A stretch of 64,000 nucleotides of DNA from a virus (Duplodnaviria > Caudoviricetes): the IMG/VR virus record IMGVR_UViG_3300037067_005614, positions 111 through 64,110 of that record; one strand, written 5' to 3'. The position numbers and the translations under genes are program-made. Of this stretch, positions 12,401 through 37,730 are shown one piece after another. Under the pieces are notes generated by a model. The model was not told the DNA's origin. It was given only the letters and a program-made list of their open reading frames with translations, and searched no databases. How positions within the stretch are numbered: the stretch's first letter is position 1; each line of letters starts with the position of its first letter.

Positions 12401-12600
12401 TGATTGAAGGGATTCGAGTCAATAACCAAGGTCGGGACGCTGAGGCAAGACAAGCCCGAGAATTCTTCGGGTCTGATATTGTCTCTAACGAATCCACTGA
12501 CATTCTCAAGGAGATTAGGGACTTGAACCAGAAGCAACTGAGTAAAGACCTTCTGGAAGGTATACAAATAACAAACGCTAGCAATGGGGGAGGCCTATAG
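9439..12600 (+). CDS. Tape measure protein
   Basis: 1053 aa, helical; FAAKTPFE...GQM.SSGRLMGQDLLQMINAGFNPL tape-measure domain. Confidence 0.92.
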   Translation: MASETEIERLVVRLVGDVSKYQKMVEEVSSSTREFTKLEQRINHLEDSLKRSNDGVGNLNSSLARSAQASDMAGIKLTALGYSLSQIGSTIRGLGGGLGTEMLRAAKDFEKTSISMRALVGNAEDADRLLRNLTDFAAKTPFEMPTLLGATKMLMQYGTKADEILPILKSIGDVTGGVDAQKVMQMSYAFGQMSSSGRLMGQDLLQMINAGFNPLSEIAKKTGKSVATLKKEMESGRITVTMVKEAFASASGKLDLMNKQSKSLEGLQSTLNDNIGIFKRKLGDELVPAAKAFVDWQGRMTEGFDNLSKSSKTAIAYSAGAVEVFGIGMEKLSSVAMTLAAIKLSGMGTALLSIAPATIAASKATATWLNTLHSVAGTTQLMTGSAIAYAVAWRVGVYGAITAVTLSILDAASAQDKLNAAFAEGELLSSKFRKFESQRHEFYMQMPAGATEIQKREVYQRESERLGGKIKGSQKSVGAKESRLARMEGSFEEVWFWNEKNINQLKNEIKNDRAELEHLQGMAAEVSKLLNPTPEATAAGAEMIKQLDLREASLRKTTTETKMLEAANKGLSKAEMDIVRNREPQVLAAEMIAKLEEEAEQYGLTEKELEKYKLSLAGLPPALRQAVDAHIDLKYAAKESGKIIADIESTIKSLTEEIGVLRAGSKEQYLLNRGLEEHASASSLDLLTRKRLEKQIVESEANVRKAIETLNEEAESLRAGGKAQAELNYAMENGTDATLGFALAQAEANKKSAELESSTQKATEAFKEEARTESYFMKDRAAAVERLTIAERELARVRSQANQSKVEAARKALENLDKANVKNYNLAKQAEKANLPGAKEFAAQAKMNEMRDREQKGREEALRLAEKLLTPEQRFAKAQEFAREMLEKNIYTYEQYKKAIEEARAEKAKFDASGIKPSLMGSAESMWRLAEYQTGISQTASRATKASDNFLMMSPEELANPKNQQRLRALQARLTPQASRAAWQQNQLIEGIRVNNQGRDAEARQAREFFGSDIVSNESTDILKEIRDLNQKQLSKDLLEGIQITNASNGGGL

Positions 12601-15466: not shown

Positions 15467-17035
15467 ATGAGCAATGGGACGGGTGGATGGTATTGCTGTT
15501 GTCCAGAAGGATGCTTTACATTCGTAGATGACTTTTGCCGTGATCCAGAGGCTTGTCCTCGTCTTGGACCACATTGGCATGTTGTGAGCCCGAGCGTTAG
15601 CGGAATACCAGAATGTGAGTATCCATATTGGCCTTGGTGGATCGACGTGGCCCAGTGTCCCGTCCCTCCCGGATTCCTTATGGAAGATGGGCATCCTGGG
15701 GCAATCATCATCAACACCGACAGAGTTCCAGCAGGCCCAAAAAACCGGAACAGCGGGTCGTTCTCCAAGTACATGAAAGCAGGATACACTGTCTACTACG
15801 ATCAAATTGGAGACAGTTACTCGTTGCTGCTGGATTTTCAACAGTGCAGGGACGGCGAGGGCTACGACTACTTTGAGTTCAAGTACACACGTGTGTCTGT
15901 TGGCGAAGCAACACTGCAATGGCTGGCGGTCATGGGTGGCACAACAACCGTACTGAAAACTTGCACGGTGACCGATGGACTGCAAGATGTTGGCACTCAC
16001 TTTGAAATTTACGGGTGTTACACCGGCGACATGCTTTATGGAGTGGTCCCGTGTGGCACGATCATCGTCGATCTATTGGACGTTGAAGGGTTCTCCGTTG
16101 GGGACATGGGAGGCTATGATTGCGACAAAGAGGCCGGATGGCACGCAGGGATCAAGCACGGAAACAGCCACCAGTGCTACTTCTCATACTGGTTCATCGA
16201 ACAGACGATCGACGACCGCGACGACTGCAACGGCTGCAACTGGTGCTTTTGTAACTTCAGCCCATTTTCTCAAGAGGAAGATCGCAACGTCGTCATACCG
16301 CCGAAGCTGCTCCTGACATTCACAGATGCAGGCGGTGCCTGTGCTGACTTGGACGGGGCGTCTATGTTGTTGACAGGCAAAGGCTGCTCGCCTGGGGAAT
16401 GGACTGGGTGGATATTGAACAACTGCCACGCATGCCTGTCGCCGTACCACGCGAATGATTACACCGAGGACTTCTGTTTGCAGGCCACTCTACAGTGCTC
16501 GGACGTATGCGAGCCGATTGACGAGGGCTACTACGAACGCGCCTTGCGCCTTTACTTGGCATACCATCAACCAACTCCGTACGGTGTTAGCGCCAGCCCT
16601 GGCCACGCGGTTATCAACTCTAGCTGCTATGCTTCTCCGTTTTACATTGGCCAGGGAGCTGCAACCTTTGTAGACAGCCCAGATATGATTGACGACTGCG
16701 TCTACGGGCTGCTTGGGCCGTACAACGGCCCTGGGCTGCTTAGGGTAAAGTTGGAGGAGTCGACATGCAGGCCCATTCTGTTCAAGTTCGCTTACGGAGG
16801 GACTTTGAACAATGTAGGGTGTTCAATCAACCAACAGACGGGAGAAGACTACACGGATACTTACTGCACGCAGAATGATGGCGAGGTTCCTTGCTGTTAC
16901 CCCGCGACGAAAACCATCTACTACGATGAAGACTTGTTCATATGGGTGTGCGAAGTCACCACGTCTGTGGCGTTTTCCATTTTAATCACCGAGGCACCAA
17001 AGGACTACATTGACCCGTGTCGAGAGTACGATTAA
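15467..17035 (+). CDS. Cys-rich acidic protein (putative tail-tip/receptor-binding)
   Basis: Begins WYCCCPEGC; Cys-rich throughout its 522 aa. Confidence 0.55.
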   Translation: MSNGTGGWYCCCPEGCFTFVDDFCRDPEACPRLGPHWHVVSPSVSGIPECEYPYWPWWIDVAQCPVPPGFLMEDGHPGAIIINTDRVPAGPKNRNSGSFSKYMKAGYTVYYDQIGDSYSLLLDFQQCRDGEGYDYFEFKYTRVSVGEATLQWLAVMGGTTTVLKTCTVTDGLQDVGTHFEIYGCYTGDMLYGVVPCGTIIVDLLDVEGFSVGDMGGYDCDKEAGWHAGIKHGNSHQCYFSYWFIEQTIDDRDDCNGCNWCFCNFSPFSQEEDRNVVIPPKLLLTFTDAGGACADLDGASMLLTGKGCSPGEWTGWILNNCHACLSPYHANDYTEDFCLQATLQCSDVCEPIDEGYYERALRLYLAYHQPTPYGVSASPGHAVINSSCYASPFYIGQGAATFVDSPDMIDDCVYGLLGPYNGPGLLRVKLEESTCRPILFKFAYGGTLNNVGCSINQQTGEDYTDTYCTQNDGEVPCCYPATKTIYYDEDLFIWVCEVTTSVAFSILITEAPKDYIDPCREYD

Positions 17036-17044
17036 TCCACAACA

Positions 17045-17437
17045 TCAAGGCAGATCGGTCCGGTATAGCCAGAAACGCTGCCGAAGTTTATGTAGACGAT
17101 TCTGGACCTTGGAGCAGTTTATGGAATCATCCAACCCTTTCTTAGATTCCGACAGGATAGGTCTTTCGATGTCTGAGTACAGACCAGACAACGCTGCTTC
17201 TAGTCTCGCGTCATGCGAACGGGAAACCACAGCAAGACGCTCAACGACTTCACGCAACTGCTTGACAACCCCGCTGCGTTTCGCCGTCGATACATCAAGA
17301 GCCATGTAGATAGTGAGCCCTTCTAATTCGTTAAACAACCCGACCAGTTCCGCCTTATCATCTTTCATGCCGGGGGCTGTGACTCTGCTTGGCTGCATGG
17401 CAGGACTGATCCACAGCAATATCGCTAGCAATAGCAT
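17045..17437 (-). CDS. Lone antisense hypothetical protein with N-terminal hydrophobic segment
   Basis: Fills the 440-bp gap between + strand genes; the + frames look like shadow ORFs. Start uncertain. Confidence 0.35.
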   Translation of the reverse strand: MLLLAILLWISPAMQPSRVTAPGMKDDKAELVGLFNELEGLTIYMALDVSTAKRSGVVKQLREVVERLAVVSRSHDARLEAALSGLYSDIERPILSESKKGLDDSINCSKVQNRLHKLRQRFWLYRTDLP

Positions 17438-17473
17438 AACTAAGATCAACAGAACACCAAGGACGTTGGGCCA

Positions 17474-18508
17474 ATGCGAATAGGTACGATCTGCCTGTCC
17501 ACGCTTTCCGGGACTATTCCCAGGGACTTCCACAGAAACGGAATCATCACCGACGTGTTGGTGGTGAGCAAACCAGGAGACTTTTCTAAGAGCTGGTATC
17601 CAGGATCGTCTCTTGCTACTGCAAACAACATCCAGAAGATGCTTGACGAGGTGGATGCCGTTCTGCTGTTTGAAGGAGTCATGAACCACGATCTTGTCGT
17701 TGGCGCGCATGATAGGAACCTCCCCATTGCTTACATGCCGATATACGGCTGGTCTAATCCAAACCTCTTAATCCACGCAGACCTCTTTCTGTGTCCTTCT
17801 CCAGTTGAGTATGCCCAGTATAGCAGCACAACCACACGGACTGTGCAAGTAACCGTACCTGTCTCTCAAATGTGGCGACTCAGAAACAACGCCCGATCAT
17901 TCGTACACAACGCAGGATCGCAGACCAGAAGCGGGACGCCTGAGATCCTCCAGTCAATGCAGTTTGTCAAAAGCCCAATCGCCCTGACCATCTTCGGGCG
18001 ACCTACCGTCCAGACCGGCAAGTACGACGACAACAAGCCGATTTTGTCGCAGAGCATCATCGCCAAGTTGGCAGAGTCTTTTACCACGGATAATCGCGTT
18101 ACGTTCGTGCTCAATGAACCAGAGCCCGAGAATTTCAGCCTGTACGACCGAGGGGACGTGTTCCTCCAGCTTCCAAAATTCGGCGGGTTATCTCTTCCGT
18201 TGCAGGAGGCTTTCTCCAGCGGGATGCTAGTGCTCACCACCGATCGGAAGCCGTTCACCGACTGGTTGCCGAATAGACCCATGGTATCCACCAACGGCTC
18301 AACGCACGGCCAAGGTGCAGTAGCACTCACGCAAGACGTGCTTGACCCAGCGGGAATTGCCACTGCCATAGATGCTTGGTATGAACGCGACATCGACGCG
18401 TTTTCGCTCGCGGGGCAGCAATGGGCAGAAGAAAACAGTTGGACAGTATGGAAGCCGCGATACATAGAGATTTTGGACGACCTCATTAGACGCCATCGCA
18501 GAAGGTGA
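17474..18508 (+). CDS. GT-B (GT4-like) glycosyltransferase
   Basis: GDVFLQLPKFGGLSLPLQEAFSSGMLVL resembles the GT4 D.F..PS..EG..L...EA...G motif. Confidence 0.75.
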   Translation: MRIGTICLSTLSGTIPRDFHRNGIITDVLVVSKPGDFSKSWYPGSSLATANNIQKMLDEVDAVLLFEGVMNHDLVVGAHDRNLPIAYMPIYGWSNPNLLIHADLFLCPSPVEYAQYSSTTTRTVQVTVPVSQMWRLRNNARSFVHNAGSQTRSGTPEILQSMQFVKSPIALTIFGRPTVQTGKYDDNKPILSQSIIAKLAESFTTDNRVTFVLNEPEPENFSLYDRGDVFLQLPKFGGLSLPLQEAFSSGMLVLTTDRKPFTDWLPNRPMVSTNGSTHGQGAVALTQDVLDPAGIATAIDAWYERDIDAFSLAGQQWAEENSWTVWKPRYIEILDDLIRRHRRR

Positions 18509-18514
18509 GACACT

Positions 18515-19003
18515 ATGCCTCCAGTCGACCTAAGCCGCTATCCCAACCTTCAGAAGTTGGTCAACACAAATCCCCGTTATCGACAGGCTTGGTTGGAAGA
18601 CAGGTTTCCACTCAAGTCTATCGCTGAGAGGTTGCCTGTCGTTGCCTCTAGTGCAAGCCCCCCTATCCCAAAGGCTGCCCAAGCCAATAAAGGGGGGGCG
18701 GGCACTGAGTTAAGCAAGTTGCTAGCCAAGTGGCATATCAAGGCTCATGCAGGGTGTAAGTGCAAGTCTCGTGCCTTGGAGATGGACCGTCGTGGCATCG
18801 AGTGGTGCGATAAGAATATTGAGTTGATTGTAGATTGGCTAGAGGAAGAAGCAACAAAGCGTCACCTACCTTTTGTAAGATCGCTTGGTAAATCATTAGT
18901 CAACAAAGCAATCCGCAACGCCAAGACTACGGCTAAGCAGGCGATACCCAATGACCCAATACGCCAGCTAGCCAATACCTTCGAGATGCGTCCTGCGACC
19001 TAA
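18515..19003 (+). CDS. Hypothetical protein (GTEL...CxC...MD..G..WC motif)
   Basis: 162-aa ORF tightly packed in the operon. Confidence 0.5.
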   Translation: MPPVDLSRYPNLQKLVNTNPRYRQAWLEDRFPLKSIAERLPVVASSASPPIPKAAQANKGGAGTELSKLLAKWHIKAHAGCKCKSRALEMDRRGIEWCDKNIELIVDWLEEEATKRHLPFVRSLGKSLVNKAIRNAKTTAKQAIPNDPIRQLANTFEMRPAT

Positions 19004-19045
19004 CATTATCTGTTACGGCAACAAAACCTAACCTAATTATATTCT

Positions 19046-19732
19046 ATGGAATGGGCTTACGGCATAACCACAGTACCCACCAGGCGGGACTCGTTGCTAG
19101 TCAAGACAGTTGCCTCGCTAGCCAAGGCAGGTTTCGAGTGTCCAAGGTTATTCGTAGATGGGGTTGAGAACAACACCGGTTACGAAAGATTTGACTTGGA
19201 AATAACAACCAGGTCACCAAGTATTCGCACCTTCGGCAATTGGATTTTGGGCCTAGCTGAGTTGTATATTCGTAATCCAATTGCTGACCGCTATGCCATG
19301 TTTCAGGATGACTTCGTGACCTATCGCAACCTCAGGCAATACTTGGAGCAATTGCCTTACCCAGAGCGCGGTTATTGTAACCTATACACCTTCCCTCGCA
19401 ACCAAGCCTTATGCAAAAGTGGAGTTGGCTGGTACTTGTCAGACCAGTTGGGCAAAGGTGCAGTTGCTTTAGTATTCAGCCATGAAGCAGTAATGACCTT
19501 ACTGTGCCATGAACATATTGTCAAGAGACCACAAGATTCACAGCGGGGTTGGAGAGCAATTGATGGCGGGATTGTTACTGCCTTCAAGAAAGCAGGGTGG
19601 AAAGAATACGTCCACAATCCTAGTCTGGTCCAACACACTGGTATTTTCAGTTCGATGGGCAATGCCAAGCAAGCGCAGGCAATGAGTTTCCGTGGTGAGA
19701 GCTTTGATGCTCTTACTCTTTTGGGTAAATAG
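19046..19732 (+). CDS. GT-A-like glycosyltransferase
   Basis: MFQDD (DxD-like) and PSLVQHTG..S motif typical of GT25-like enzymes. Confidence 0.65.
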   Translation: MEWAYGITTVPTRRDSLLVKTVASLAKAGFECPRLFVDGVENNTGYERFDLEITTRSPSIRTFGNWILGLAELYIRNPIADRYAMFQDDFVTYRNLRQYLEQLPYPERGYCNLYTFPRNQALCKSGVGWYLSDQLGKGAVALVFSHEAVMTLLCHEHIVKRPQDSQRGWRAIDGGIVTAFKKAGWKEYVHNPSLVQHTGIFSSMGNAKQAQAMSFRGESFDALTLLGK

Positions 19733-19746
19733 CAAAGGGCAGGTCA

Positions 19747-20769
19747 ATGAAAGTAGGATCGATTGGTTGGGCGACTCAATCAGGACTGGGCATCCTGGCC
19801 AAGGCTTTCTACGACCATGGAGTTGTCAATAGAATGTTGGTTATCCAACACCCACACTATGACACTCACTGGGATTGGTATCCAACCCAGGTTGGTGTTG
19901 ACCGATTCTTGGATGAGTTAAATGTTCTACTGCTGTTTGAAACGGCTATCGATTGGAATGTGGCTAAGAAGGCAAAGGCCAAGAGCATTCCTATTGTGCT
20001 AATGCCGATGTATGAGTGGACCCCTCCCAGTTTGCCTGTACCAATTGACCTATACTTATGCCCCTCGCTGCTAGACCTGCGTTACTATGAGCACAAGCCC
20101 AGCCGATTAGGAGCAAAATTCATTCCAGTGCCAGTAGAAAAGCCCTGGAAGCTTAGAACCAAAGCCCTACACTTTGTCCACAATGCTGGCCACGGCGGTA
20201 GCGGGTTTCGTAACGGCACGCCTGAGCTACTGCAAGCCCTGCCATTGGTCGGTAGCCCTATACGCCTGACCGTACGGGGGCAACCAGGCATCCGAGGTCC
20301 TAAGCGCGCAAGGGCCTCTGAAGACCGTGTGTCAGCCCTATTCCGACAAGCTAAGGATGACCCAAGGTTGGATTTGCAATTAGGCGACTTCCCATACGAT
20401 TCGATGTTTGAAGAAGGAGACGTGTTTGTCTTTCCTGAGAAGTTCAATGGGCTTAGCTTGCCACTCCAAGAGGCTCACGCTAGCGGTATGTTGGTCATGG
20501 CCAGCAATCGGTTTCCTTCCAATACGTGGTTGCCTACTGACCCGCTGATACCCATCCATCGCTACCGGGAGGAGCAAATCGCTGTACTAGTTGAGTCAGC
20601 CATAGTAGAGCCTAGAGAGATTGCCTACTGCATTGACACTTGGTACAACCGCAACATCGAAGAATATTCCATCAAGGGCAAGCAGTGGGCTGAAGCAAAC
20701 AGTTGGGAAGTACTGAAGCCCCAATACCTATCTGCACTGGAGCAAGTCTGTGGCATTGCTACTAAATAG
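19747..20769 (+). CDS. GT-B (GT4-like) glycosyltransferase, paralog of 17474..18508
   Basis: GDVFVFPEKFNGLSLPLQEAHASGMLVM; FVHNAG; QWAE.NSW shared. Confidence 0.75.
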   Translation: MKVGSIGWATQSGLGILAKAFYDHGVVNRMLVIQHPHYDTHWDWYPTQVGVDRFLDELNVLLLFETAIDWNVAKKAKAKSIPIVLMPMYEWTPPSLPVPIDLYLCPSLLDLRYYEHKPSRLGAKFIPVPVEKPWKLRTKALHFVHNAGHGGSGFRNGTPELLQALPLVGSPIRLTVRGQPGIRGPKRARASEDRVSALFRQAKDDPRLDLQLGDFPYDSMFEEGDVFVFPEKFNGLSLPLQEAHASGMLVMASNRFPSNTWLPTDPLIPIHRYREEQIAVLVESAIVEPREIAYCIDTWYNRNIEEYSIKGKQWAEANSWEVLKPQYLSALEQVCGIATK

Positions 20770-21406
20770 TGGGTTGGTGTTCTTGCATGTGCCGAAGACA
20801 GGTGGACAAACCATTCGTCATGTGCTTAGAGAATACCAATTGTTGGCTAACGAGGATGATTTGCCTGTGGTCAATTCTGTCGATTGGCCTTTTCGTAAGG
20901 ACACGACTGACCCAAACATCATTCCCCATGCTAACTACAGTACCTTGGGCATTGACCCATCTGTCTGCTTTGCCTTCGTACGTCACCCGCTGGATTGGTA
21001 TCGCTCCCAATGGGCCTTTACGATGACCAAGCGAGGTAGCCTGGAAACCTTCCTTGCTACTAAGCCAGGGCCAGATGAGATTGATTCGATTGGGACAGGC
21101 AACTTTGTGGATTGGGTGACGATGCGCCTGCAAGCCTACCCAGAAGGGATGGTGTCAAGGCTGTACAGTCGCTATACCGAAGGGATTAAGTTTGTTGGTA
21201 AGTTTGAATACTTGAAAGACGATTTGGAGTGGATTTTGGATCTGCCAAATCTGCAATTGCCCAAAGTCAACAGTAGTGACCCGCGATTCTTAGCCCAAGC
21301 CATTTATCCTAGAGATTTAGCCATACGAACAGCGGAGACTGAGAAGCAGGCAATGGAGCAATTTGGTTACGATCTGTCGCAAGCCAGCAGTTATATTGAG
21401 CCGTGA
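20750..21406 (+). CDS. Sulfotransferase family 2 protein
   Basis: FLHVPKTGG (5'-PSB) and FVRHPLDWYRS (3'-PB); FVGKFE.L..D. Confidence 0.8.
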   Translation: MALLLNSGLVFLHVPKTGGQTIRHVLREYQLLANEDDLPVVNSVDWPFRKDTTDPNIIPHANYSTLGIDPSVCFAFVRHPLDWYRSQWAFTMTKRGSLETFLATKPGPDEIDSIGTGNFVDWVTMRLQAYPEGMVSRLYSRYTEGIKFVGKFEYLKDDLEWILDLPNLQLPKVNSSDPRFLAQAIYPRDLAIRTAETEKQAMEQFGYDLSQASSYIEP

Positions 21407-22299
21407 GCGAGGGGGATATGTCAGTAATGTTGTGTACGCTCTGTCTCAATGAGATGGAGCACTTGCAAAATCTGTATGACCAGCATCAAGACTGGCCTAA
21501 GATGCGTCAGTGGGTGTTCGTTGAATCAGCCGACCGTTACTATGCTAAGGCTAACCCAACAATGGTCACTGAGGCTGGGCTGAGCGTAGATGGCACTAGT
21601 CAGTTCCTTAAGGAGTTATCAGAAAAAGACCCACGGGTCATCTACATCCCATTTGGCTTCTCTTCCAATAAAGACCCCGCCCAGGGAAAGGTTGAGTCTA
21701 GACAGCAGTACTTGAACGTAGCTAACGAGTCAAGACCAGACTTCCTATTCATACTAGACGCAGATGAGTTTTATACATGCGCTGACCAAGACAGAATAAC
21801 CAGCTTGATGGGCAGTTCATCTAGGAATGCAACAGGATTTCGCTTCAAGCATCGTTATCCCTGGCGTCCTGGTTCAATACGAGATTGGTCTTTGTTTGGA
21901 TTGGAAGCAGTTGGGGCTTATTGGGATATCCCCCATATCAGAGGTTGGCGGTATTTTCCTGGGTTATCGTACGCTTCCAACCACAACTGGCCAGAGGTTA
22001 ATGGTAAGCTACTATCCAAATCTGTCATCCGCTACGATTCAATGCCTGGAGATTATCCAGAATGCGCTCACTTGGCTTTCGCTTCCGTACATAAAATACG
22101 GGCCGCTAAGCACAAATACTACATCACTCGTGGTGAAGGCGTTAGTGACGGGCGGCAGATGTATGTTGATTGTCGGGCCGCGTTTGAGACATGGAAGCCC
22201 GGTAAGAAACTACCACATGGGGCATCCATCATTAAGTACACAGGACCTATTCCAGAAGTGCTACAACAAGACACAGAAGCTCGATTTTGGTGTATTTAG
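21403..22299 (+). CDS. GT2-like glycosyltransferase
   Basis: LNEMEHL, SVDGT and ILDADEFY motifs. Confidence 0.7.
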   Translation: MSEGDMSVMLCTLCLNEMEHLQNLYDQHQDWPKMRQWVFVESADRYYAKANPTMVTEAGLSVDGTSQFLKELSEKDPRVIYIPFGFSSNKDPAQGKVESRQQYLNVANESRPDFLFILDADEFYTCADQDRITSLMGSSSRNATGFRFKHRYPWRPGSIRDWSLFGLEAVGAYWDIPHIRGWRYFPGLSYASNHNWPEVNGKLLSKSVIRYDSMPGDYPECAHLAFASVHKIRAAKHKYYITRGEGVSDGRQMYVDCRAAFETWKPGKKLPHGASIIKYTGPIPEVLQQDTEARFWCI

Positions 22300-22325
22300 C
22301 TATCATCTAGAGTAGGGAATCATCT

Positions 22326-22649
22326 GTGATTACAGTAAGGAAAGTAGGAATGTGCATTGAGTTGACTATTTCTGGTGGTAAGGCTTTATATCACAGTAAA
22401 CCTGGTGGAGTAACTGAGATTGTAGATGTCATTGTTGATGAACCAATGCGTAGAAGAGGCTTAGGCACTCAACTAATCAAAACAGTCAAGTCAAGAATCG
22501 ACAAAGACTCAGTCATTCACGTGTTTACCCGTAGAACAAATGGAATAGCTAGGCTATTCTATAAGAGCCTGGGTATGTATGAGATCGTCATCCCTGGTTT
22601 CTATCCTAACGACGATGCCTGTCTTTTTATTGACAAGGAAAGACCATGA
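22326..22649 (+). CDS. GNAT acetyltransferase
   Basis: VDEPMRRRGLGTQLI acetyl-CoA motif; N..A..FYKSLG. Confidence 0.75.
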   Translation: MITVRKVGMCIELTISGGKALYHSKPGGVTEIVDVIVDEPMRRRGLGTQLIKTVKSRIDKDSVIHVFTRRTNGIARLFYKSLGMYEIVIPGFYPNDDACLFIDKERP

Positions 22650-23383
22650 TACTTAGCAATCCTCTACCTGTCGCGTCAGAGACTTTCTGGGAGAATCGTC
22701 TGGAGAAAGTCAAGCAAGACCCGAAAAATCTACATCGTTGTATTTACGAAGTGGACCGTCCTGTTTGGGACGACATCCAAATGTGGCATAAGAGGACACT
22801 AGAATCGCTACTGGTCAACACAAAGGTATTGGATGCCGGTTGTGGCTATGGGGCCATGACTGAAATCCTACCTCAGGTGCAGAAGTATGTTGGTGTTGAT
22901 CAATCTAAAGCTTTACTCAAAGCCATGGATTCCCTCTACCCTAGCTACGCCAACATTCAAGCAAAGCTAGATAACTTGCCGTTTGAGGACTACGAATTTG
23001 ATTGGGTAGTTTGCCGGTCTATCAAGAAGATGATACTCGACAACGTGGGCGAGGAGGCCTGGCTACGAATTGAAATTGAGTTGCTGCGAGTTGCTAGGAA
23101 GCTACTGATTCTTGAGTACGAAGACCCTCAAGGCTTTTCTATTGTTAGGAGCGGACATGCGAGACATAAGAAGCTGTTGCGTTTGCGTGATCGGTGGAGC
23201 GGGGTTTCTAGGATCGCACCTAGTGAACTACCTGATCGACAAGAGAAACTGTCAAGTGCTAGTGTTAGACAACCTGATCAGCGGGTTGAAGAAGCACATC
23301 CACAAAAAGGCGACGTTCCTGTGGTACGATATTCGGGAGAACTACCAGGAACTAGCGAAGATTCTGAGGCAGTACCAGGTTGA
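22646..23383 (+). CDS. Class I SAM-dependent methyltransferase
   Basis: VLDAGCGYG, GVDQS, LPFED..FD, ELLRVA. The tail overlaps the next gene by ~225 bp. Confidence 0.8.
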   Translation: MILSNPLPVASETFWENRLEKVKQDPKNLHRCIYEVDRPVWDDIQMWHKRTLESLLVNTKVLDAGCGYGAMTEILPQVQKYVGVDQSKALLKAMDSLYPSYANIQAKLDNLPFEDYEFDWVVCRSIKKMILDNVGEEAWLRIEIELLRVARKLLILEYEDPQGFSIVRSGHARHKKLLRLRDRWSGVSRIAPSELPDRQEKLSSASVRQPDQRVEEAHPQKGDVPVVRYSGELPGTSEDSEAVPG

Positions 23384-24158
23384 ATACGTATTCAACTATG
23401 CCGCTGAACCTTACGTGCCAGATTGCTTTGAGAGGCCACTGCACTTCTTCACGATCAATGCCGTAGCTGCCCTCAACGTATTGAATGCTTGCCAGGAAGC
23501 CAATATCAAGGCAGTACTGCAAGTTAGCTCAGCTGAGATTTACGGTGAAGCAAAGGGCAAGATTGCTGAGGATGCCCCAGTTATCCCCCACAGCACCTAC
23601 GGCGTTAGCAAGGTAGCTGCTGATGGATTGGTACAGGTGCGCTGGCGGGAGGCTAAGGTGCCCGCCATTGCCATGCGACAGTTTAACTGTGTGGGTGAAC
23701 GCGAAACCCACGAGTATGTTATCCCAGAGATCATCAGCCAACTCAACGACCAAGAGCCTGGACAAAGTAGAGATGGCCTTGGGAATGTAGACGTTTGGAG
23801 AACTGTACATCTAGGCAACAATAGCGAGCGAGACTTTCAGTATGCTGGCGATGCTGTGAGGATGGCTGTTGAGTTGTTGGAGAAGGGCCAGTTTGGCGAA
23901 GTCTACAACATGGGCTCAGAATCAACTATCAAGATTTATGACTTGGCCAAACTAATTGGGCATGTCATGTTCGACTACGGTAGAGTAGAGATTGAGCAAG
24001 ACCCAAAGCGAGTGAGGCCCTGGGAAATTTGGCATCTGCAAAGTGACAATCTAAAACTCTACACAACCATCGAAGCTAGACCAGCAGTGTTACTCTATGA
24101 TGCCTTGAAGAGAACTGTGGATTACTACCGAGTCAATGGATGCAAGTGGGATTGGTAG
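23157..24158 (+). CDS. NAD-dependent NDP-sugar epimerase/4,6-dehydratase (extended SDR)
   Basis: GGAGFLG, SSAEIYG, YGVSK, RDFQY, EVYNMGS; AGGAG RBS. Confidence 0.88.
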   Translation: MRDIRSCCVCVIGGAGFLGSHLVNYLIDKRNCQVLVLDNLISGLKKHIHKKATFLWYDIRENYQELAKILRQYQVEYVFNYAAEPYVPDCFERPLHFFTINAVAALNVLNACQEANIKAVLQVSSAEIYGEAKGKIAEDAPVIPHSTYGVSKVAADGLVQVRWREAKVPAIAMRQFNCVGERETHEYVIPEIISQLNDQEPGQSRDGLGNVDVWRTVHLGNNSERDFQYAGDAVRMAVELLEKGQFGEVYNMGSESTIKIYDLAKLIGHVMFDYGRVEIEQDPKRVRPWEIWHLQSDNLKLYTTIEARPAVLLYDALKRTVDYYRVNGCKWDW

Positions 24159-24159
24159 T

Positions 24160-24894
24160 ATGGCTCAAACAATGAAGTATGTTATCGGCAGTGGTTGGTA
24201 TTGTGCCAAGGGACGTAGCTTCCCTAATGGTGGTAACGTCTACTCTAGGTCAAGGCAGTTCCATGAATTATGGAAGCATTGTGTCTTCAAGTACTCCAAC
24301 CCTGCCGGTGTATTAATTGTTGACTCAGCCTCTCCACTGCTACCTAACCCAGACCCTAGGGAGCAAGTGCTACGGTTGGACGCCAACTACCAGAATACTG
24401 ACTATCTGCTGAGTGGTTGGGGTCGTAGCTTCATCATCAGTGCTATGTATGCGTACAGTTGCATGGCTGACTTGTTCTACGTGGAGCAAGACTGCCTGGC
24501 TATGGGCAATTGGGTAGGGGACTGCTACAAGCAATCAACAGAGTACCCCAACCGCTTCTTGGCTGGCAAGCCTTACGAGGATGAACGCAAGGTCAAACAC
24601 CATGCCTTACAGATGAGTTTGGTGTTTGTGCCCAGGACTATCATCCTAGACCTGGTAAAGGCATTTCCTAATGGACCGCTCGACAAAGGCCGCGATGAGT
24701 CACAGTTAGGCTTGTGTGGTGTGCCGTTAGCCTTCCATACCTTCGGCTCCGGCCGCACTAGACCCTACGACCTAAAAGCCCCTACCTGCGAGGTTCAGCA
24801 CTGGACTGACCCAGAGATACTAGAAGTGGCAGACCACTTGGGGCTAGGTGACCAGGTGCATAACGACTACCAACACCGAGAGGATTGGGAATAA
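24160..24894 (+). CDS. Putative glycosyltransferase-like protein
   Basis: IVDSASP and YVEQDCL (DxD-like) motifs; cluster context. Confidence 0.45.
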   Translation: MAQTMKYVIGSGWYCAKGRSFPNGGNVYSRSRQFHELWKHCVFKYSNPAGVLIVDSASPLLPNPDPREQVLRLDANYQNTDYLLSGWGRSFIISAMYAYSCMADLFYVEQDCLAMGNWVGDCYKQSTEYPNRFLAGKPYEDERKVKHHALQMSLVFVPRTIILDLVKAFPNGPLDKGRDESQLGLCGVPLAFHTFGSGRTRPYDLKAPTCEVQHWTDPEILEVADHLGLGDQVHNDYQHREDWE

Positions 24895-24896
24895 CC

Positions 24897-25619
24897 ATGA
24901 AGCTCTTGTATGCTTCCTCAATACCAATCGACGCTCCACCTAACCGGGGTGGCCCTAACCGTTGGATGTTTCGTGAGTCTCTTACCAAGTACAGTATTCC
25001 GGCTGAAAACTTTACGTTGGGATGCAATTTCAACCATGATGGCAATGATACCTGGTGGCGATTGCTGAAAGTATTGGAACACCAAGCCACAGACGAGATT
25101 GTGTTGGTGACTGATGCTTGGGATGTATTCTTCACAACCGGGCTAGAGCAGATTGAGCAAGCCTTCTTGGAATTCAATTCGCCAATTGTATTCGCTATGG
25201 AGACCAATCTGTTTCCACCGGAGGTTGCCGGCTTCGGTACATTGCCTGAGGCCCCTACTCGCTGGCGATACATCAATGGTGGACAGATCATTGGTAGGGC
25301 AGGGGTTCTACTCGATCTGTTTAATGAACCTGATTTCTGGCCCAAGCCTCTGTGCTGGTGCAACCAGTCTGCCTACAATCGCTGGTGGATCAACCACCCC
25401 GACAGCAAGGATTTTGCCCTAGACTTCTACTGCCGTCTGTTCTGCAACCTCTATGACAACCACAAGATGGAACGTCCCGTGTTAGATGCCATCGAAGTCC
25501 ACTGCACTACAGAAGGCAAGCGATTGTATAACAACGAAACGAAAACCCACCCCTGCTCATTCCACGGCAATGGCGGTTGGGCTCCCGCTGCTGCCAAGTT
25601 ATGGAGGATGATAAGCTAA
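24897..25619 (+). CDS. PLOD/procollagen galactosyltransferase-like GT domain protein
   Basis: VLVTDAWDVFF, IVFAME.N.FP, RYINGG..IG, LD..C.LF.NL and HGNG match the PLOD GT-domain pattern. Confidence 0.75.
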   Translation: MKLLYASSIPIDAPPNRGGPNRWMFRESLTKYSIPAENFTLGCNFNHDGNDTWWRLLKVLEHQATDEIVLVTDAWDVFFTTGLEQIEQAFLEFNSPIVFAMETNLFPPEVAGFGTLPEAPTRWRYINGGQIIGRAGVLLDLFNEPDFWPKPLCWCNQSAYNRWWINHPDSKDFALDFYCRLFCNLYDNHKMERPVLDAIEVHCTTEGKRLYNNETKTHPCSFHGNGGWAPAAAKLWRMIS

Positions 25620-26197
25620 TGTCCCTACAAGACTATGATTACCAGCAATTCCCCTATGTGTTCGCTACTTTGCCTGGCTATGGCACGGATATGACTAGTG
25701 CCTTACGTCTTGCTGTCCGTAAGACGTTGACTGACGTGGTTGGTGCACCCCTACAATACCTAGAGATCGGTATTTGGGAGGGTCGCAGTGGGTGTTGGAT
25801 GCTCGATAACGTGTTGACCCACCCAGACTCTCACTACCTTGGTATCGACAACTGGACTAGCCCGTCACAAGTACCCATCTTAGCCCGCAAACACCTGGGC
25901 TACCACGGAATCAAGTCTGAGATACTAGATGGTGACTCCAAGAAAATTGTGCCCCAACTGACACGAACCTTCGATATTGGTTTTGTCGATGGGGATCACA
26001 CTGAGAATGGATGCTACATAGACCTCTGCAACGTTTGGAATAAGCTGAATGTAGGTGGCACTTTGATTGCTGATGATTACAAGTATCCCAACCTACCAGG
26101 AGTCCACGCTGCAATTGACAGGTTTGAGGCAGAACACACCGATGATGCTGTATTGCTTTTCAAAGAAATGGCTGTTGTCTATCGAAAGGTCAAATAA
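25619..26197 (+). CDS. Class I SAM methyltransferase (Methyltransf_24-like)
   Basis: YLEIGIWEGRS, GDS, FVDGDH, GG.LI.DDY. Confidence 0.82.
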   Translation: MSLQDYDYQQFPYVFATLPGYGTDMTSALRLAVRKTLTDVVGAPLQYLEIGIWEGRSGCWMLDNVLTHPDSHYLGIDNWTSPSQVPILARKHLGYHGIKSEILDGDSKKIVPQLTRTFDIGFVDGDHTENGCYIDLCNVWNKLNVGGTLIADDYKYPNLPGVHAAIDRFEAEHTDDAVLLFKEMAVVYRKVK

Positions 26198-26487
26198 TGG
26201 ATGTACCTGCTGAACGGGTTTATGATTTTGATGACTTGAAGAAGCCCGGACAATTCCAATTCACTACACGAGTTGGTATGGAAGGCCATACAGGCATGAT
26301 CTTCGTCTGCCCATGTGGGTGTGGTTCAATATCTGGTATACCATTCAGAAAGAAAGAGGGGGAGCCTGGTCCATGCTGGCACTGGAATGGCAGAGCCGAC
26401 AAACCTACACTAACTCCAAGCATTCGTAAGTTAGATGGTTGCCAGTGGCATGGTTTCCTGACTGATGGTAATTTCCAGGAGTGTTAG
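26197..26487 (+). CDS. Small Cys/His protein (DUF6527-like)
   Basis: CPCGCG...W.WNG...PTLTPSI...C.WHGFL.DG. Confidence 0.6.
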   Translation: MDVPAERVYDFDDLKKPGQFQFTTRVGMEGHTGMIFVCPCGCGSISGIPFRKKEGEPGPCWHWNGRADKPTLTPSIRKLDGCQWHGFLTDGNFQEC

Positions 26488-27479
26488 CTTTGGAACCCTA
26501 CCAAGAATTAGAACTGAGGTTTGGTGAGTGGATTGGCAATCCTAATGCAGTGGCTTGCTCCAGCGGTACAGCAGCCTTGCACTTAGCCTTAGAGTCCCTG
26601 CAACCACCGATGCACAGTTGTGTCATGGTGCCTGAGTTCACCATGGTGGCTTGCGCTAGAGCGGTTACGATGGCTGGGCTACACCCCATCTTCGTGGATT
26701 GTGACAATGACTTGCTGATTGACCCGGCTCTGATACGTAGCAAGACAGTAAGACACCTGTCTGCTATCATGCCAGTCCACATCTATGGTCGCAGATGCAA
26801 CATGAATGCAATCATCGACCACGCCAAGACCAACCACTTGCTGGTGATCGAGGATATGGCGGAGATTCACTGTGTTAACCCCCACCCCGAGAGCGATGCT
26901 GCCTGCTGGTCCTTCTACAAGAATAAGGTGGTTCATGGGGAAGAAGGTGGGATGGTGGTATTCAATGAAGCCAAGTATGCTGACAAGGCAAGGCAGCTAC
27001 GCAACCTTGGCTTTACGAATGCGCACAACTTCAGTCACATACCGCGAGGGCACAATTACCGGCTAGCCAACCTACTGGCAGAACCGGTTCTAGCTAGCCT
27101 AGCCAAGGCTGAGAGCCATTTGGAGTGGCGTAGACAACAGGTCGACGATTGTGACGCGGTGTTGCCTAATGAATGGAAGATGCCCCCAAGGCTATCCAAT
27201 TGGGTGTACGACCTACGAATCCCAGGCATGAAAGAAGAGACGCAAGACAAGCTAGTTGCTTCACTCAACTCCCAAGGTATTGCTGCCAGGCATGGATTCA
27301 AGCCAATGAGCAGTCAGCGAGAGTACCGCAACGGCAGCTATCGGCATCTTAACGCTCACCGGCTATCCCAAGAGGTTATCTACCTGCCGTTGTACGAAGA
27401 GTCAAGCTTGCAAGATGCTGCTAACAACGTTCACGCTCTGGTAGACACCTACCAAACCCTAACAGCAGTGCAGAAGTGA
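26481..27479 (+). CDS. DegT/DnrJ/EryC1/StrS PLP-dependent sugar aminotransferase
   Basis: SSGTAALHLAL, PVHIYG, IEDMAE, SFYKNK....EGG, GHNYR. Confidence 0.9.
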   Translation: MLALEPYQELELRFGEWIGNPNAVACSSGTAALHLALESLQPPMHSCVMVPEFTMVACARAVTMAGLHPIFVDCDNDLLIDPALIRSKTVRHLSAIMPVHIYGRRCNMNAIIDHAKTNHLLVIEDMAEIHCVNPHPESDAACWSFYKNKVVHGEEGGMVVFNEAKYADKARQLRNLGFTNAHNFSHIPRGHNYRLANLLAEPVLASLAKAESHLEWRRQQVDDCDAVLPNEWKMPPRLSNWVYDLRIPGMKEETQDKLVASLNSQGIAARHGFKPMSSQREYRNGSYRHLNAHRLSQEVIYLPLYEESSLQDAANNVHALVDTYQTLTAVQK

Positions 27480-27488
27480 TTGTGTAGG

Positions 27489-27544
27489 CCCCTAGTCCTG
27501 CTGGTTGTGGCTGTTCGCTCCCGGCCACACCAGCAGGCTAGGGG
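27489..27544. terminator. Long hairpin at the convergence of late and early operons
   Basis: CCCCTAG-T-CCTGCTGG-T-TGTGGC ... GCCACA-CCAGCAGG-CTAGGGG inverted repeat. Confidence 0.6.
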
Positions 27545-27554
27545 ATCTATCTGG

Positions 27555-28104
27555 TTAAGTTTGAGCAGGTGAATCCTCACTCTTGTCTTCTTTCTCAGCA
27601 AAGTAGGGCTTTCCGGTTGCCCTAGCAATTTGGTTGTCAATGCGGGTTAGGATCGTTGGATCGTAGACTATACCATCCTTGGTGTGAGCCAGATGAATCT
27701 CCCGCCTGGCTTGCACAAGCATCGACAGCAGACCAGTATGATTTTCTGCCTCTTGCAGAAATAACTTGACACCACCGATAGCAGATTCAAAATTGCCAGC
27801 TACCCACTCGGTAGGGCTTTCCTGTTGCCCTAGCAATTTGGTTGTCGATGCGGGTTAAGATGGTTGGGTCGTAGACTACTCCATCCTTGGAATGCGCAAG
27901 GTAGATTTCTCTTCTTGCCTGCACAAGCATCGACAGCAGACCAGTATGATTTTCTGCCTCTTGCAGAAATAACTTGACACCACCGATAGCAGATTCAAAA
28001 TTGCCAGCTACCCACTCGGTAGCTCGCAGTCGTTGCTCAATCAGAGCAAACTGCTTCCTAGCGGCTTCTAATTTGGCTTTCATTTGGGTTGCCTCGCTTG
28101 ACAA
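27555..28104 (-). pseudogene. Hypothetical gene frameshifted by the 208-bp duplication
   Basis: ORFs 27787..28104 and 27555..27836 encode the same TEWVAGNF...ATGKPY segment in different frames. Confidence 0.6.
27603..28022. repeat. 208-bp tandem duplication (27603-27810 / 27811-28018)
   Basis: Second halves identical; first halves differ mostly at synonymous sites. Confidence 0.95.
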
Positions 28105-28128
28105 TAGGGGTTGGGGGAATTGTACTTT

Positions 28129-28623
28129 CTACTCTACTGAATCTGCAATTGCTTCACGCAGTTCTTTCATTGCTTGACAATAGGCCGACTGCGACATGCC
28201 TGTTGCTTCGATGCAGGCTATACCAAACTTCGCTTGCAGTGATTCGATAATGACTACAGCCTTCCTGGCTGCCCTAACCAAAGCTGGGTCTGGTAGCTGT
28301 CTATCTGTCATGACAGCAGGCACGTATTTGCTGGCTATCAGACAGCGGCAATTCACTTGTGGGTGATGCTCGATTATGGGGTCTGGTATTAACGCTAGAA
28401 ACTCTCTTGCTTTCTGGTCTGCATCATCAACTACCATTTCAGCCATGCGCACGACGGTTTCAAATTTCTCCATCTGGTGTGAGCCAAGAGGGCCAGCTCG
28501 CTTCCATGTGTCCAGTAATTTGCGGCACACATCGAGGGGTGTTGGGATGGGGTCGGTTTTGGGTTGCTCTGACACAATTATGGCTCCGTACTGTAGTGGG
28601 TAATGGCTAGGGGGTAACGACAC
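28129..28623 (-). CDS. Hypothetical protein
   Basis: ORF in the leftward operon. Confidence 0.5.
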   Translation of the reverse strand: MSLPPSHYPLQYGAIIVSEQPKTDPIPTPLDVCRKLLDTWKRAGPLGSHQMEKFETVVRMAEMVVDDADQKAREFLALIPDPIIEHHPQVNCRCLIASKYVPAVMTDRQLPDPALVRAARKAVVIIESLQAKFGIACIEATGMSQSAYCQAMKELREAIADSVE

Positions 28624-33881: not shown

Positions 33882-34085
33882 CTATTTAGCTGGCAGTACG
33901 TGGCCCCGACCGTCGCGGGGAGAAGCCACGTATTGACTAAGTTGCTGGGGCGTTACGTCGTAGACAAAACCAGATCCCCAGCCTGGGGTTTCTATGCGAT
34001 TGGCTTGCATGTAGCCCTTGCGTATCAGCCATCGCACTTGCTGGGGGCTGATGCCCAGTTGCTTTGATGTTTGTTTGGGAGTCAC
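33882..34085 (-). CDS. Excisionase-like HTH DNA-binding protein
   Basis: TPKQ.S..LGIS...VR.LIR.G pattern. Confidence 0.6.
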   Translation of the reverse strand: MTPKQTSKQLGISPQQVRWLIRKGYMQANRIETPGWGSGFVYDVTPQQLSQYVASPRDGRGHVLPAK

Positions 34086-34471
34086 GGAAGTTCCTTCGTC
34101 TGTATGCTGGTGAATGTAACTACATGGCAGCCGTTGTACCAAGCGCGTTCAAGTGCATCACGCCTGGCGGCTAACTCACTGTTGGCAGTGCAGTGATGTT
34201 TGACTTCAACGCCACCGCGGTACTCGCCTTCGTTAGCCACGACCAACTTCATTCGGTATTGTCTGGCAGTAGCTTTGCATTTCGTTGGTATAGGCGTGTT
34301 GGTCCGTTGGATTGCCTCCACCCAACCGCCACTGTCTACGATCCGTCGTATGACAACGTTTTTCGCCTCTTCCTCTGAATCAGCAATAGCCCATTCATAC
34401 GCCGTTCCCTTGCTGATACTCCCATCAGGTAGGTTGCTACGGATTACCACGTAGAAATCATATCGAGACAT
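34082..34471 (-). CDS. Hypothetical protein
   Basis: GGGGG RBS; GTGA overlap with the next gene. Confidence 0.5.
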   Translation of the reverse strand: MSRYDFYVVIRSNLPDGSISKGTAYEWAIADSEEEAKNVVIRRIVDSGGWVEAIQRTNTPIPTKCKATARQYRMKLVVANEGEYRGGVEVKHHCTANSELAARRDALERAWYNGCHVVTFTSIQTKELP

Positions 34472-35146
34472 TGTGAATCCCCCTTGATTCGTGTCTACTT
34501 ATCACAAAGAGACTTGATAGCGGCATACTCTTCGCAATCTGACCACTCGGCGCTTATGTGGGTTGTCAATGGTACTGCGCCCCGCATTCGGGGCAGGGAA
34601 TCGTCAGTCCGAGGTTGCGGTGCCATGGGTGGTCGCAAAACGGTTGGCTAGCTAGTTCACGTTGCAGATACGGAACGGGATCGGCCATCGGGTAATCCGA
34701 AACGATTGGTCCTTCGTCCGGCACTTCAAGCGGAATGAGATTCCCGTTGACTACCACGAGAACTGGGCGCTCTCGCAGGATGCGGCATCGCTCGCTGTTC
34801 TTGACGGTCTCCTGGTCCTAAAAATGCCAAGCGACCCAACCGTGAGGCAGGCCATTGGCGGTCAATTCCTAGAATTCATCTCCATCGAATTGCTTGGTAA
34901 ACCTGCAAAGTTGACCAAGCAGACGCACGCCGAAGTAATGCTTTGTCATTTCTAATTCTCCAAATTGTCCCCGTGCCGCACGTTCTGGATGCGAAAACGC
35001 TTGTTGAAAGTTGGGGCGAGTCTGGGTCTTGCTTTGTACCATTAGCCACTTTCCAGCCTACTCGCCCCATGTTCGTTCTGCTGGACCATTTTGTTGACGT
35101 TACCGAAATGGTCGCCCGTGTCCGCACGTTCTGGGTGCGGTGGGGG

Positions 35147-35500: not shown

Positions 35501-35566
35501 TCCGCCCGTGTTGTCGTCGTGCAGGCCGAGATGCTCGGCATTGCCGCAGAGTGTGATGCTCGCCGC

Positions 35567-35749
35567 CTAACTAAACTGCCTGCTGACCCAATCGTTCCAT
35601 CCTCGCGTCCACGCCTTACCCCGTACTGTGCGCGCACCGTACGGATTACGGCATTTAGACGGATCGCCGTCATGTTGTCTTGCCGCCTCCTCTCCATCCC
35701 TGTATGCGCGGTTGGTTTCTTCTGGTTGAATCGTCCTGAACGCCATCAT
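35567..35749 (-). CDS. Rmf/CrpP-fold-like small protein
   Basis: AYRDG..A.......CRNPY.......AWTRGW motif; AGGAG RBS. Confidence 0.6.
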   Translation of the reverse strand: MMAFRTIQPEETNRAYRDGEEAARQHDGDPSKCRNPYGARTVRGKAWTRGWNDWVSRQFS

Positions 35750-37700: not shown

Positions 37701-37730
37701 GTCTAATCTCTCATTGCTTGGGGTTAGGTT

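Follow-up and report, generated by a model that had tools for sequence, protein, structure and literature searches.

Why should a tailed phage carry 10 kb of sugar-making genes behind its tail genes, and which molecule would receive the resulting glycan? These questions are raised by a stretch of 64,000 nucleotides (hereafter, the window) that corresponds to bases 111 to 64110 of the linear, 64,110-base IMG/VR record IMGVR_UViG_3300037067_005614, a Caudoviricetes genome that is about 90% complete and reads as that of a siphophage. Positions 17474 to 27479 on the plus strand hold 14 tightly packed open reading frames (ORFs), for which the initial annotation had proposed a pathway that builds an amino-sugar-containing, methylated, and sulfated glycan. 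In our view, the best reading of this block, or cassette, is glycosylation of the virion, to which we assign a probability of about 0.5 on the basis of gene position and synteny. The gene content is certain, and our literature search found no published description of such a cassette, although absence is not thereby proven.

The block comprises two paralogous glycosyltransferases (GTs) of the GT-B type, four GT-A-type GTs, a candidate sulfotransferase, two methyltransferases, a small GNAT-family N-acetyltransferase (mini-GNAT), a short-chain dehydrogenase/reductase (SDR), a DegT-family aminotransferase, and two ORFs of unknown function. The genes named in the initial annotation were all recovered in place. 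Fold and profile tests bore out its two GT-B, GT25-like, GT2-like, and PLOD-like enzymes as well as its one possible GT, bringing the GT-like total to six, and the families given for both methyltransferases, the GNAT, the nucleoside diphosphate (NDP)-sugar SDR, and the DegT aminotransferase were likewise recovered by Pfam, while PHROG, profile, and Foldseek comparisons pointed to the family given for the candidate sulfotransferase. Two further ORFs (18515-19003 and 26197-26487) had not been listed there. A sugar-pathway assignment was obtained for 12 of the 14 ORFs, which are co-oriented and translationally coupled, with gaps of at most 42 bases or overlaps of 1 to 43 bases; the exception is a 227-base overlap between a methyltransferase gene and the SDR gene. 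At E ≤ 0.01, Pfam returned a family match for 11 of the 14 ORFs; seven of these (starting at 22326, 22646, 23157, 24885, 25577, 26197, and 26481) scored above the curated cut-off and four below it (17474, 23.3 versus 26.4 bits; 19747, 17 versus 27; 20750, 18.7 versus 22; 21403, 19.8 versus 27.5). None of the 14 proteins has a membrane segment (maximal Kyte-Doolittle 19-mer, 1.56). Judged by its sequence, the block is a cytoplasmic, self-contained glycan-making pathway of predicted soluble enzymes. As no nucleotidyltransferase is encoded in it, NDP-sugars, 3'-phosphoadenosine-5'-phosphosulfate (PAPS), S-adenosylmethionine (SAM), and acetyl coenzyme A would have to come from the host.

Placement of the cassette among structural genes

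In the window, the tail module that precedes the block includes a tail terminator (7633-8082, plus strand), a tape measure (9439-12600, plus strand), and five unnamed ORFs that continue on the plus strand up to 17035; ORF 8098-8574 is a candidate for the tail tube. From 27.5 kb onward, a helicase, an HNH endonuclease, and small ORFs are found on the minus strand, followed by a replication block with DNA polymerase A (PolA). A scan of 16500 to 28500 for consensus promoters and terminators gave no excess over shuffled sequences.

To place this arrangement among those of other phages, we used the GT-B encoded at 19747-20769, the member of the cassette that recurs in all lineages. It has at least 1,412 metagenomic homologs at E ≤ 1e-5 (2,829 candidates scored), almost all of them unnamed metagenome proteins on contigs of up to about 100 kb, and a tblastn search against 50,697 cultured-phage records returned no match at E ≤ 1e-5. 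An alignment of 22 sequences served for a pattern scan of IMG/VR that yielded 90 relatives; 80 viral loci were kept, and their architectures were assigned by tblastn of marker proteins. Type A accounts for 37 loci, type B (the window's kind) for 26, and type C for nine; the remaining eight are cut by contig ends or ambiguous. With 14 ORFs in 10 kb, the window's block stands at the top of the size range (median of 7.5 ORFs and 6.6 kb over the 80 loci).

In type A, the order is terminase, portal, major head protein, small ORFs, cassette, SU10-type head-tail adaptor, and LamG proteins, and the cassette consists of a GT_1_2 gene, a methyltransferase, optional GNAT, formyltransferase, or APS kinase genes, the GT-B, an SDR or a GDP-mannose 4,6-dehydratase (GMD), and DegT. 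Both structural markers are present in 28 of the 37 loci, and in all 28 the GT-B lies between the head protein and the adaptor on one strand; the other nine are cut by contig ends. In one complete type A genome of 36,666 bases with terminal repeats (G017), transcription runs in a single direction and the cassette sits mid-operon. The head-type lineage, with genomes of 36 to 39 kb, is abundant. In type B, tail-module genes are followed by a GT25-like gene, the cassette, and then a helicase or nuclease; the GT25-like gene is present in 26 of 26 loci (its presence being one criterion for the class), and a tail homolog is visible in 15 of 26. Type C loci belong to large phages and have added GT4, LbH, or FkbM genes, UDP-glucose dehydrogenase, and APS kinase. 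One GT-B family links tail-end, head-embedded, and large-phage forms of the cassette, whose placement inside the structural modules of unrelated phages is conserved (37 head-module and 26 post-tail loci of the 80). Moreover, among three genomes with a common tail module and cassette, G002 is temperate and carries RecT, and G000 and G006 carry PolA. Since tail module and cassette are shared despite these differences in replication, the cassette travels with structural genes and not with replication or DNA-modification genes.

The cassette is swappable, and its content is exchanged among close relatives. A second scan, anchored on the type A head protein, gave 116 relatives, of which 80 were kept and 81 loci (including L077) were mapped. 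The head protein and the adaptor were both present in 22 loci: 12 with the GT-B cassette, five with other sugar genes and no GT-B, and five with none. Four of the five cassette-free loci have a head-to-adaptor gap of 1.2 to 2.8 kb, and all five have distant head proteins. Because five of 22 loci carry no sugar genes, we consider the slot to be filled in most members of the lineage but not obligatory. The first gene of the type A cassette, a GT that matches GmaR, always accompanies the cassette. HNH homing-endonuclease genes occur in or at the edge of cassettes in L054, L081, L093, L096, and L201 (14690-15256), which fits a recombination-prone, swappable slot.

Predicted enzymes and their product

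The proposed route to an amino sugar starts with the extended SDR at 23157-24158 (plus strand; Epimerase, 8e-47; GDP_Man_Dehyd, 2.3e-43). Its NCBIfam scores lie below every cut-off, the best being LegB (132.8 bits versus a cut-off of 475) and dTDP-glucose 4,6-dehydratase (128.4 versus 365), and its best PDB match (6zl6, 1.8e-24) is named only as an epimerase domain-containing protein. The motif QVSSAEIYG and YxxxK are invariant in ten homologs, and the former aligns with QASTSEMF of a true GMD in L014. The catalytic triad, which is T-D-E in RmlB, thus reads S-A-E in the window and T-S-E in the L014 GMD, with YxxxK and the Glu invariant. Across the 80 loci, 37 have only the SDR, 23 only GMD, four both, and 16 neither, so that the two are mostly alternatives for the dehydratase slot, with a true GMD in 27 of 80. 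By its motifs, the SDR is most likely a 4-keto-forming dehydratase, and a 6-deoxy product is likely; it may alternatively be a decarboxylase or an epimerase, and a UDP-glucuronate route is possible because some relatives carry UDP-glucose dehydrogenase.

The second enzyme of the route is the DegT-family pyridoxal phosphate (PLP) sugar aminotransferase at 26481-27479 (plus strand; PF01041, 3.1e-57), a homolog of which is found in 68 of the 80 loci. It has the motif SFYKNK, and the SFxxxK lysine of DegT proteins is the PLP lysine. Its best PDB matches are the perosamine synthetases 3bn1, 3dr7, and 3dr4 (7.7e-39 to 6e-38; the next match is at 1e-29). LegC and PseC are closest in NCBIfam; as no equivalog cut-off is reached, the identity of the substrate stays inferred. 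Because the SDR aligns with GMD in motif and slot and DegT is nearest to perosamine synthetases, we read the pair as makers of a 4-keto and then a 4-amino sugar, and an amino-sugar route is likely from these sequences. The initial annotation had named a 4-amino-4,6-dideoxy sugar route of the perosamine or viosamine type. DegT and the frequent GMD in the SDR slot of relatives, both of which recall the GDP-perosamine pathway, speak for it, whereas the SDR itself stays a candidate 4,6-dehydratase, with an S-A-E triad, unlike that of GMD, and NCBIfam scores far below the equivalog cut-offs. Likewise, the N-acetyltransferase of the GDP-perosamine pathway is of the left-handed beta-helix type, whereas the window enzyme is a mini-GNAT of 107 residues (22326-22649, plus strand; PF00583, 7.6e-9) with homologs of 94 to 99 residues in type A cassettes. 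From their families, we would expect the SDR to oxidize C4 of an NDP-hexose from the host, most likely in a reaction that includes 4,6-dehydration, DegT to transaminate C4 to give a perosamine- or viosamine-type 4-amino sugar, and the GNAT to N-acetylate it.

The conserved GT-B (19747-20769, plus strand), whose Pfam score is below the cut-off, would transfer this amino sugar. In an alignment, it and its paralog (17474-18508, plus strand; 38% identity; Pfam Glycos_transf_1, 5.3e-5, below the cut-off) form one family with strongly conserved GT4-like motifs; the family profile found no relative among PDB sequences at E ≤ 0.1. The 17474 protein is divergent: it lacks the near-invariant Glu of FPEKFNG, has a three-residue deletion in the loop HNAGNGG..GRNGT, and is absent from the closest relative of the window, L002. 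Its role may be that of a partner without catalysis of its own; modelling of the two paralogs as a complex scored 0.00, which gives no verdict and counts neither for nor against binding.

The four GT-A-type enzymes would start or extend the chain. The GT25-like protein at 19046-19732 (plus strand), the marker of the post-tail cassette, has the invariant motifs FQDD and HNPSLVQHTG and an AlphaFold2 (AF2) model with a mean pLDDT of 80.6. It has no Pfam match, and its profile gave nothing useful against PDB sequences. The top Foldseek matches of the model are POMGnT1 (1e-8), KfiA, COLGALT1, Mimivirus R655 and R699, and LH3, and in the Atlas it falls among viral clusters, one of which is automatically named GT25; the predicted fold is GT-A. 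An hhalign comparison with the type A cassette GT indicated that the two are unrelated. That GT is instead related to the GT2/GmaR-like protein at 21403-22299 (plus strand; PF13704 [GT2_4], 0.0011, below the cut-off), in which the DxD motif LDADEFY is invariant: hhalign gave 93.3% and an E value of 2.8e-7 over 95 columns that include the DxD motif. The profile of 21403 itself matched no PDB sequence, and that of the type A GT matched one only, GmaR (3.2e-10). The protein at 24136-24894 (plus strand) has no Pfam match and belongs to no named family; its Atlas model resembles GT2, GT34, and Nucleotid_trans clusters (TM scores of 0.58 to 0.71), which suggests a GT-A-like fold, and among the loci compared it occurs only in the window and L002. 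The fourth, at 24885-25619 (plus strand), is a PLOD-type GT-A (PF25342 [GT_PLOD], 4.7e-18) with similar stretches (24 to 32% identity) in Synechococcus myophages, where four of nine are annotated as 2OG-Fe(II) oxygenase proteins, and in Roseobacter phage CRP-6.

Two methyltransferases and a PAPS-type sulfotransferase would decorate the chain. The 218-residue protein at 20750-21406 (plus strand), a candidate carbohydrate sulfotransferase, carries the motif HVPKTGGQT and matches PHROG_3347 (1.8e-8) and, below the cut-off, PF03567 (Sulfotransfer_2; 0.002). There are 731 relatives at E ≤ 1e-3 in a representative library; 10 of 36 aligned homologs match PF03567, and a PKTGG-type motif is nearly invariant in the 36. 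The family profile found the heparan sulfate 6-O-sulfotransferase 5t03 in the PDB at 1.4e-3, on the HiPKTGGt loop, and a phmmer search of the PDB with the single sequence gave chance matches only. The AF2 model (pLDDT of 85) had a best Foldseek E value of 3e-3 (none ≤1e-3) and TM scores of 0.25 to 0.44, and the top matches listed were all PAPS sulfotransferases. Sulfation of the glycan by this protein is therefore probable on sequence grounds; sulfation genes are present in five of the 80 related loci. The class I SAM methyltransferase at 22646-23383 (plus strand; Methyltransf_25/11, about 7e-10) has a homolog in 60 of the 80 loci. Its ORF and the SDR gene, which are read in different frames, share 227 bases, so that the 75 C-terminal residues of the methyltransferase are encoded within the overlap; the same long form is seen in L002 and L010, and relatives elsewhere have 155 to 175 residues. 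The second methyltransferase (25577-26197, plus strand; PF13578 [Methyltransf_24], 7.5e-18; TylF, 1.7e-4) is a candidate for sugar O-methylation.

The two remaining ORFs are a basic protein of 162 residues with three cysteines (18515-19003, plus strand), which has homologs at the same position in L002 and L003 and no match in Pfam, PHROG, or NCBIfam, and a DUF6527 protein of 96 residues with six cysteines (26197-26487, plus strand; PF20137, 1e-18; phrog_15183, 3.2e-22), of which no homolog was detected in L002.

The acceptor of the glycan

As gene position suggests, the glycan would be added in the cytoplasm, either ahead of particle assembly or while it proceeds, to at least one structural protein of the phage itself. 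The block would probably be expressed with the late genes, and the released particle would carry a strain-variable, partly anionic sugar coat. The fold matches of the 19046 model, which include protein O-glycosyltransferases as well as Mimivirus R655 and R699, are consistent with such a role.

Giant viruses and a few mycobacteriophages are known to make glycan coats of their own. Glycosylating mycobacteriophages encode two to four GTs and little sugar-nucleotide synthesis, whereas the window cassette adds the amino-sugar route, two methyltransferases, and a sulfotransferase. As in those phages, the GT genes lie in or next to a structural operon on the same strand (438 bases after the tail module in the window; 28 of 28 head-type loci). 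According to PMC12619734, mycobacteriophage glycans are found on the capsid and on the C termini of the tail tube. Che8, Corndog, and Myrna share with the window soluble phage GTs beside structural genes, with glycans on capsid and tail-tube subunits in their case (PMC12619734 and PMC11256854). For the core GT-B and the GT_PLOD protein, no sequence relation to these GTs was found: the core GT-B has no match in the 50,697 cultured-phage records, and the GT_PLOD protein matches cyanophages and a roseophage only. Megavirinae, including Mimivirus, likewise encode a dehydratase, a DegT-type aminotransferase, an acetyltransferase, a methyltransferase, and GTs, and use viosamine- or bacillosamine-type sugars on the fibrils of their own surface (PMC10117803 and PMC8456856), and R655 and R699 of Mimivirus are among the top fold matches of the 19046 model. 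They are, however, giant eukaryotic viruses whose glycan chemistry is solved, whereas the window belongs to a 64-kb tailed phage known from its genes. We know of no sulfation of Mimivirus fibril glycans. By analogy, the block resembles the mycobacteriophage and Megavirinae systems in function and neither of them in sequence.

A cellular parallel is GmaR of Listeria, which acts in the cytoplasm and uses its N-terminal domain to add O-GlcNAc to the filament protein flagellin (PMC9638930). Like the enzymes proposed here, it uses a cytoplasmic GT2-type domain to glycosylate a self-assembling filament protein, and G017 encodes a GT2+TPR protein of similar build (L201:11799-13784), the gene for which is not part of the main cassette and is flanked by those of the head-tail adaptor and a collagen-like tail fibre. 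Unlike GmaR, the window's 21403 is linked to it only through the type A GT profile and has no anti-repressor domain.

Several observations weigh against a virion acceptor. The initial annotation had described the block as appended to the tail operon; it is indeed on the same strand and 3' of the tail module, but a 438-base spacer (17036-17473) parts it from the last tail-module ORF. This spacer holds a probable antisense gene (17045-17473, minus strand) with a hydrophobic N-terminal membrane anchor, a coiled-coil-like tail, and codon-position GC contents of 0.57/0.38/0.55 as in real genes; it has no homolog in loci L002 to L025. Auxiliary genes of cyanophages are also found among structural genes, so that a late-operon position is no proof of a virion role. 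Structural neighbors are not evident in the nine type C loci, and in the temperate G002, tail genes flank the cassette on one side and the immunity/integrase region on the other, which is where conversion genes are usually found. The sequencing runs listed as containing window sequence are DNA only, from landfill and groundwater metagenomes of five studies, with no RNA run among them; two of these runs may be the source. GT families of this kind also use lipid-linked or DNA acceptors (bioRxiv 10.1101/2023.12.21.572611 and PMC13326640). A glycan on the phage's own virion, as proposed initially, is favored by synteny in two unrelated structural contexts, but no conserved candidate acceptor was found.

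Two candidates for such an acceptor were rejected, which counts on the same side. One is the repeat protein at 5476-6741, which occurs in one of 17 cassette-bearing records and is unique to the window genome. It has 421 residues, with one Lys or Arg versus 50 Asp and Glu, and about a dozen S/T-rich repeats around WSW/WTW. Directly upstream of its gene is a gp80-like head-fibre gene (5018-5464). By sequence, the protein may form a fibre or decorate the particle, and its role as a glycan acceptor in the window phage is speculative. The other, suggested by the PLOD- and GT25-like enzymes, was collagen-like fibres as general acceptors; these are found in five of the 80 loci and not in the window. 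As a separate observation, the last tail-module ORF (15467-17035) encodes 522 residues with 34 cysteines, has no family match, and is absent from L002.

An alternative with the same enzymes is remodelling of the host envelope. They would make a new NDP-amino sugar and, from the cytoplasmic side, modify host lipid-linked intermediates of O-antigen, capsule, or S-layer glycan, which the host flippase, polymerase, and ligase would then export, with superinfection exclusion, lysogenic conversion, or reduced loss of progeny on debris as the outcome. Perosamine-type sugars and GT25, GT4, and GT2 enzymes are classical components of O-antigen and lipooligosaccharide, the exchange of cassette content among close relatives recalls that of O-antigen loci, peripheral GT-B enzymes require no membrane segment, and the cassette of the temperate G002 has genes for a superinfection-immunity protein and an integrase as neighbors. 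We nevertheless regard both this reading and these outcomes as unlikely. The absence of a flippase and polymerase, which the initial annotation had held against O-antigen conversion, was confirmed and extends further: the block encodes no initiating phosphoglycosyltransferase, flippase (Wzx), polymerase (Wzy), ligase (WaaL), or Gtr-type (GtrABC) protein and no membrane protein of any kind, and in the 80 loci, five of 620 cassette ORFs reach a hydrophobicity of 1.8, two of them being the GT-B and the SDR themselves. No integrase is among the window ORFs scanned, which include the phage's own PolA, helicase, and DNA-modification genes, and one complete annotated head-type genome has none either. 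The 28 of 28 informative head-type loci with the cassette between head protein and adaptor belong to small phages, and this head-embedded arrangement is hard to reconcile with lysogenic conversion. Another soluble acceptor, be it a small molecule, a host protein, or a phage protein that is not part of the virion, or a drain on host NDP-sugar pools at the expense of envelope synthesis, seems more doubtful still. An SDR, DegT, a methyltransferase, and a GT-B are the standard set for tailoring antibiotics with deoxyamino sugars, 25577 has a TylF-like match, and the acceptor search gave no candidate; yet no scaffold gene (polyketide synthase, nonribosomal peptide synthetase, or cyclitol) is among the window ORFs scanned, six GTs point to an oligosaccharide and not to a single sugar on an aglycone, and placement in structural operons is conserved.

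DNA is a stronger rival than the initial annotation had implied, because genes for 5-hydroxymethyl-deoxyuridine (5-hmdU) had been overlooked there. The window encodes a 5-hmdU DNA kinase helical domain (58801-59715; PF18723, 4.7e-52), a weak HMUD1 domain (59766-60314), a thymidylate-synthase homolog cut by the contig end (63146-64000), NT5C, a 5'-nucleotidase (61905-62456), a weak uracil-DNA glycosylase (UDG)-like ORF (57896-58291), and, elsewhere, a UDG-superfamily ORF (42126-42692); by sequence, 57896-64000 is a predicted gene set for thymidine hypermodification. An amino sugar, methylated or sulfated, could accordingly be put on 5-hmdU or another modified base and block restriction. Phage clusters of a GT and an epimerase, or of several GT-Bs and NDP-sugar enzymes, glycosylate DNA (bioRxiv 10.1101/2023.12.21.572611 and PMC13326640), and both GT-A and GT-B folds are able to act on it (bioRxiv 10.1101/2023.12.21.572611). 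Such 5hmC/5hoC clusters share with the window a multi-gene set of GT-A/GT-B and NDP-sugar enzymes; however, they adjoin 5mYOX, C5-methyltransferase, or thymidylate-synthase homologs and replication genes, whereas the window cassette lies behind structural genes, about 31 kb from the hmdU genes and 3' of tail genes, and its relatives lie in or behind structural genes as well.

Co-occurrence argues in the same direction. The kinase is present in six of the 17 cassette-bearing records (3/6 of those at least 90% complete) and the thymidylate-synthase homolog in seven of 17. Both are missing from G002 (92% complete) and G006 (100%), in which Pfam scans of ORFs of at least 110 residues found no other hydroxymethyl-pyrimidine gene and only ordinary DNA methyltransferases and a Mom homolog. 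The thymidylate-synthase homolog occurs in none of five type A genomes, four of which have terminal repeats. Tet_JBP was found in none of the 17 records, but control genomes were silent too, which makes this result uninformative. In the block, no T4 glucosyltransferase family was matched by Pfam, and the GT proteins are neutral to acidic, except for 19046, which is slightly basic. Because the cassette does not track hydroxymethyl-pyrimidine genes, either by adjacency or by co-occurrence, we have lowered DNA as the acceptor to a slim chance. The case shows the need to exclude DNA, as a thymidine-hypermodifying phage carries the cassette and relatives without that pathway keep it.

Returning to glycosylation of the virion, we tentatively propose, with clearly less confidence than for that reading itself, a modular "glyco-slot" in the structural operons of at least three phage lineages, whose product in the window phage would be an oligosaccharide of N-acyl-4-amino-6-deoxyhexose, methylated and sulfated, on virion proteins. 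If virion glycosylation is borne out, it would be a common and quickly diversifying trait among environmental phages, and mycobacteriophages would be no special case; this would bear on the stability of particles, their adhesion, the masking of receptors, and the way in which therapeutic phages are recognized by the immune system. The product might even, although this is doubtful, be the first sulfated glycoconjugate known to come from a bacterial virus. The cassette is also a source of small, soluble enzymes with which to carry out rare amino-sugar, methyl, and sulfate chemistry, such as the 107-residue GNAT and the 218-residue sulfotransferase.

Host and genomic surroundings

Assignment of a host through genome collections was dropped, since the 15 loci found there are on short contigs of metagenome-assembled genomes with discordant taxa (Opitutaceae, Caulobacter, Pirellulales, archaea, and others) and include no isolate. 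A megablast search of the glycan block against cultured phages returned no match, nor did a tblastn search with ORF 5476-6741, at that time assumed to encode the capsid protein. Pfam and PHROG scans of the window ORFs found no terminase, portal, or recognizable capsid gene; these genes probably belong to the tenth of the genome that the record lacks.

Upstream of the head-fibre-like gene, ORFs 773-1801 and 3050-3745 encode lectin-type domains (Laminin_G_3, 9.5e-24, and CBM96, 3.6e-15). LamG proteins are also present in the head-type relatives, where they are encoded 3' of the adaptor. Finally, the region from 34001 to 40000 differs from the rest of the window in composition: its G+C content is 0.55 to 0.57 versus 0.45 to 0.52 elsewhere, and its AT skew is strongly negative. 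Both of its strands hold overlapping ORFs that are ambiguous.

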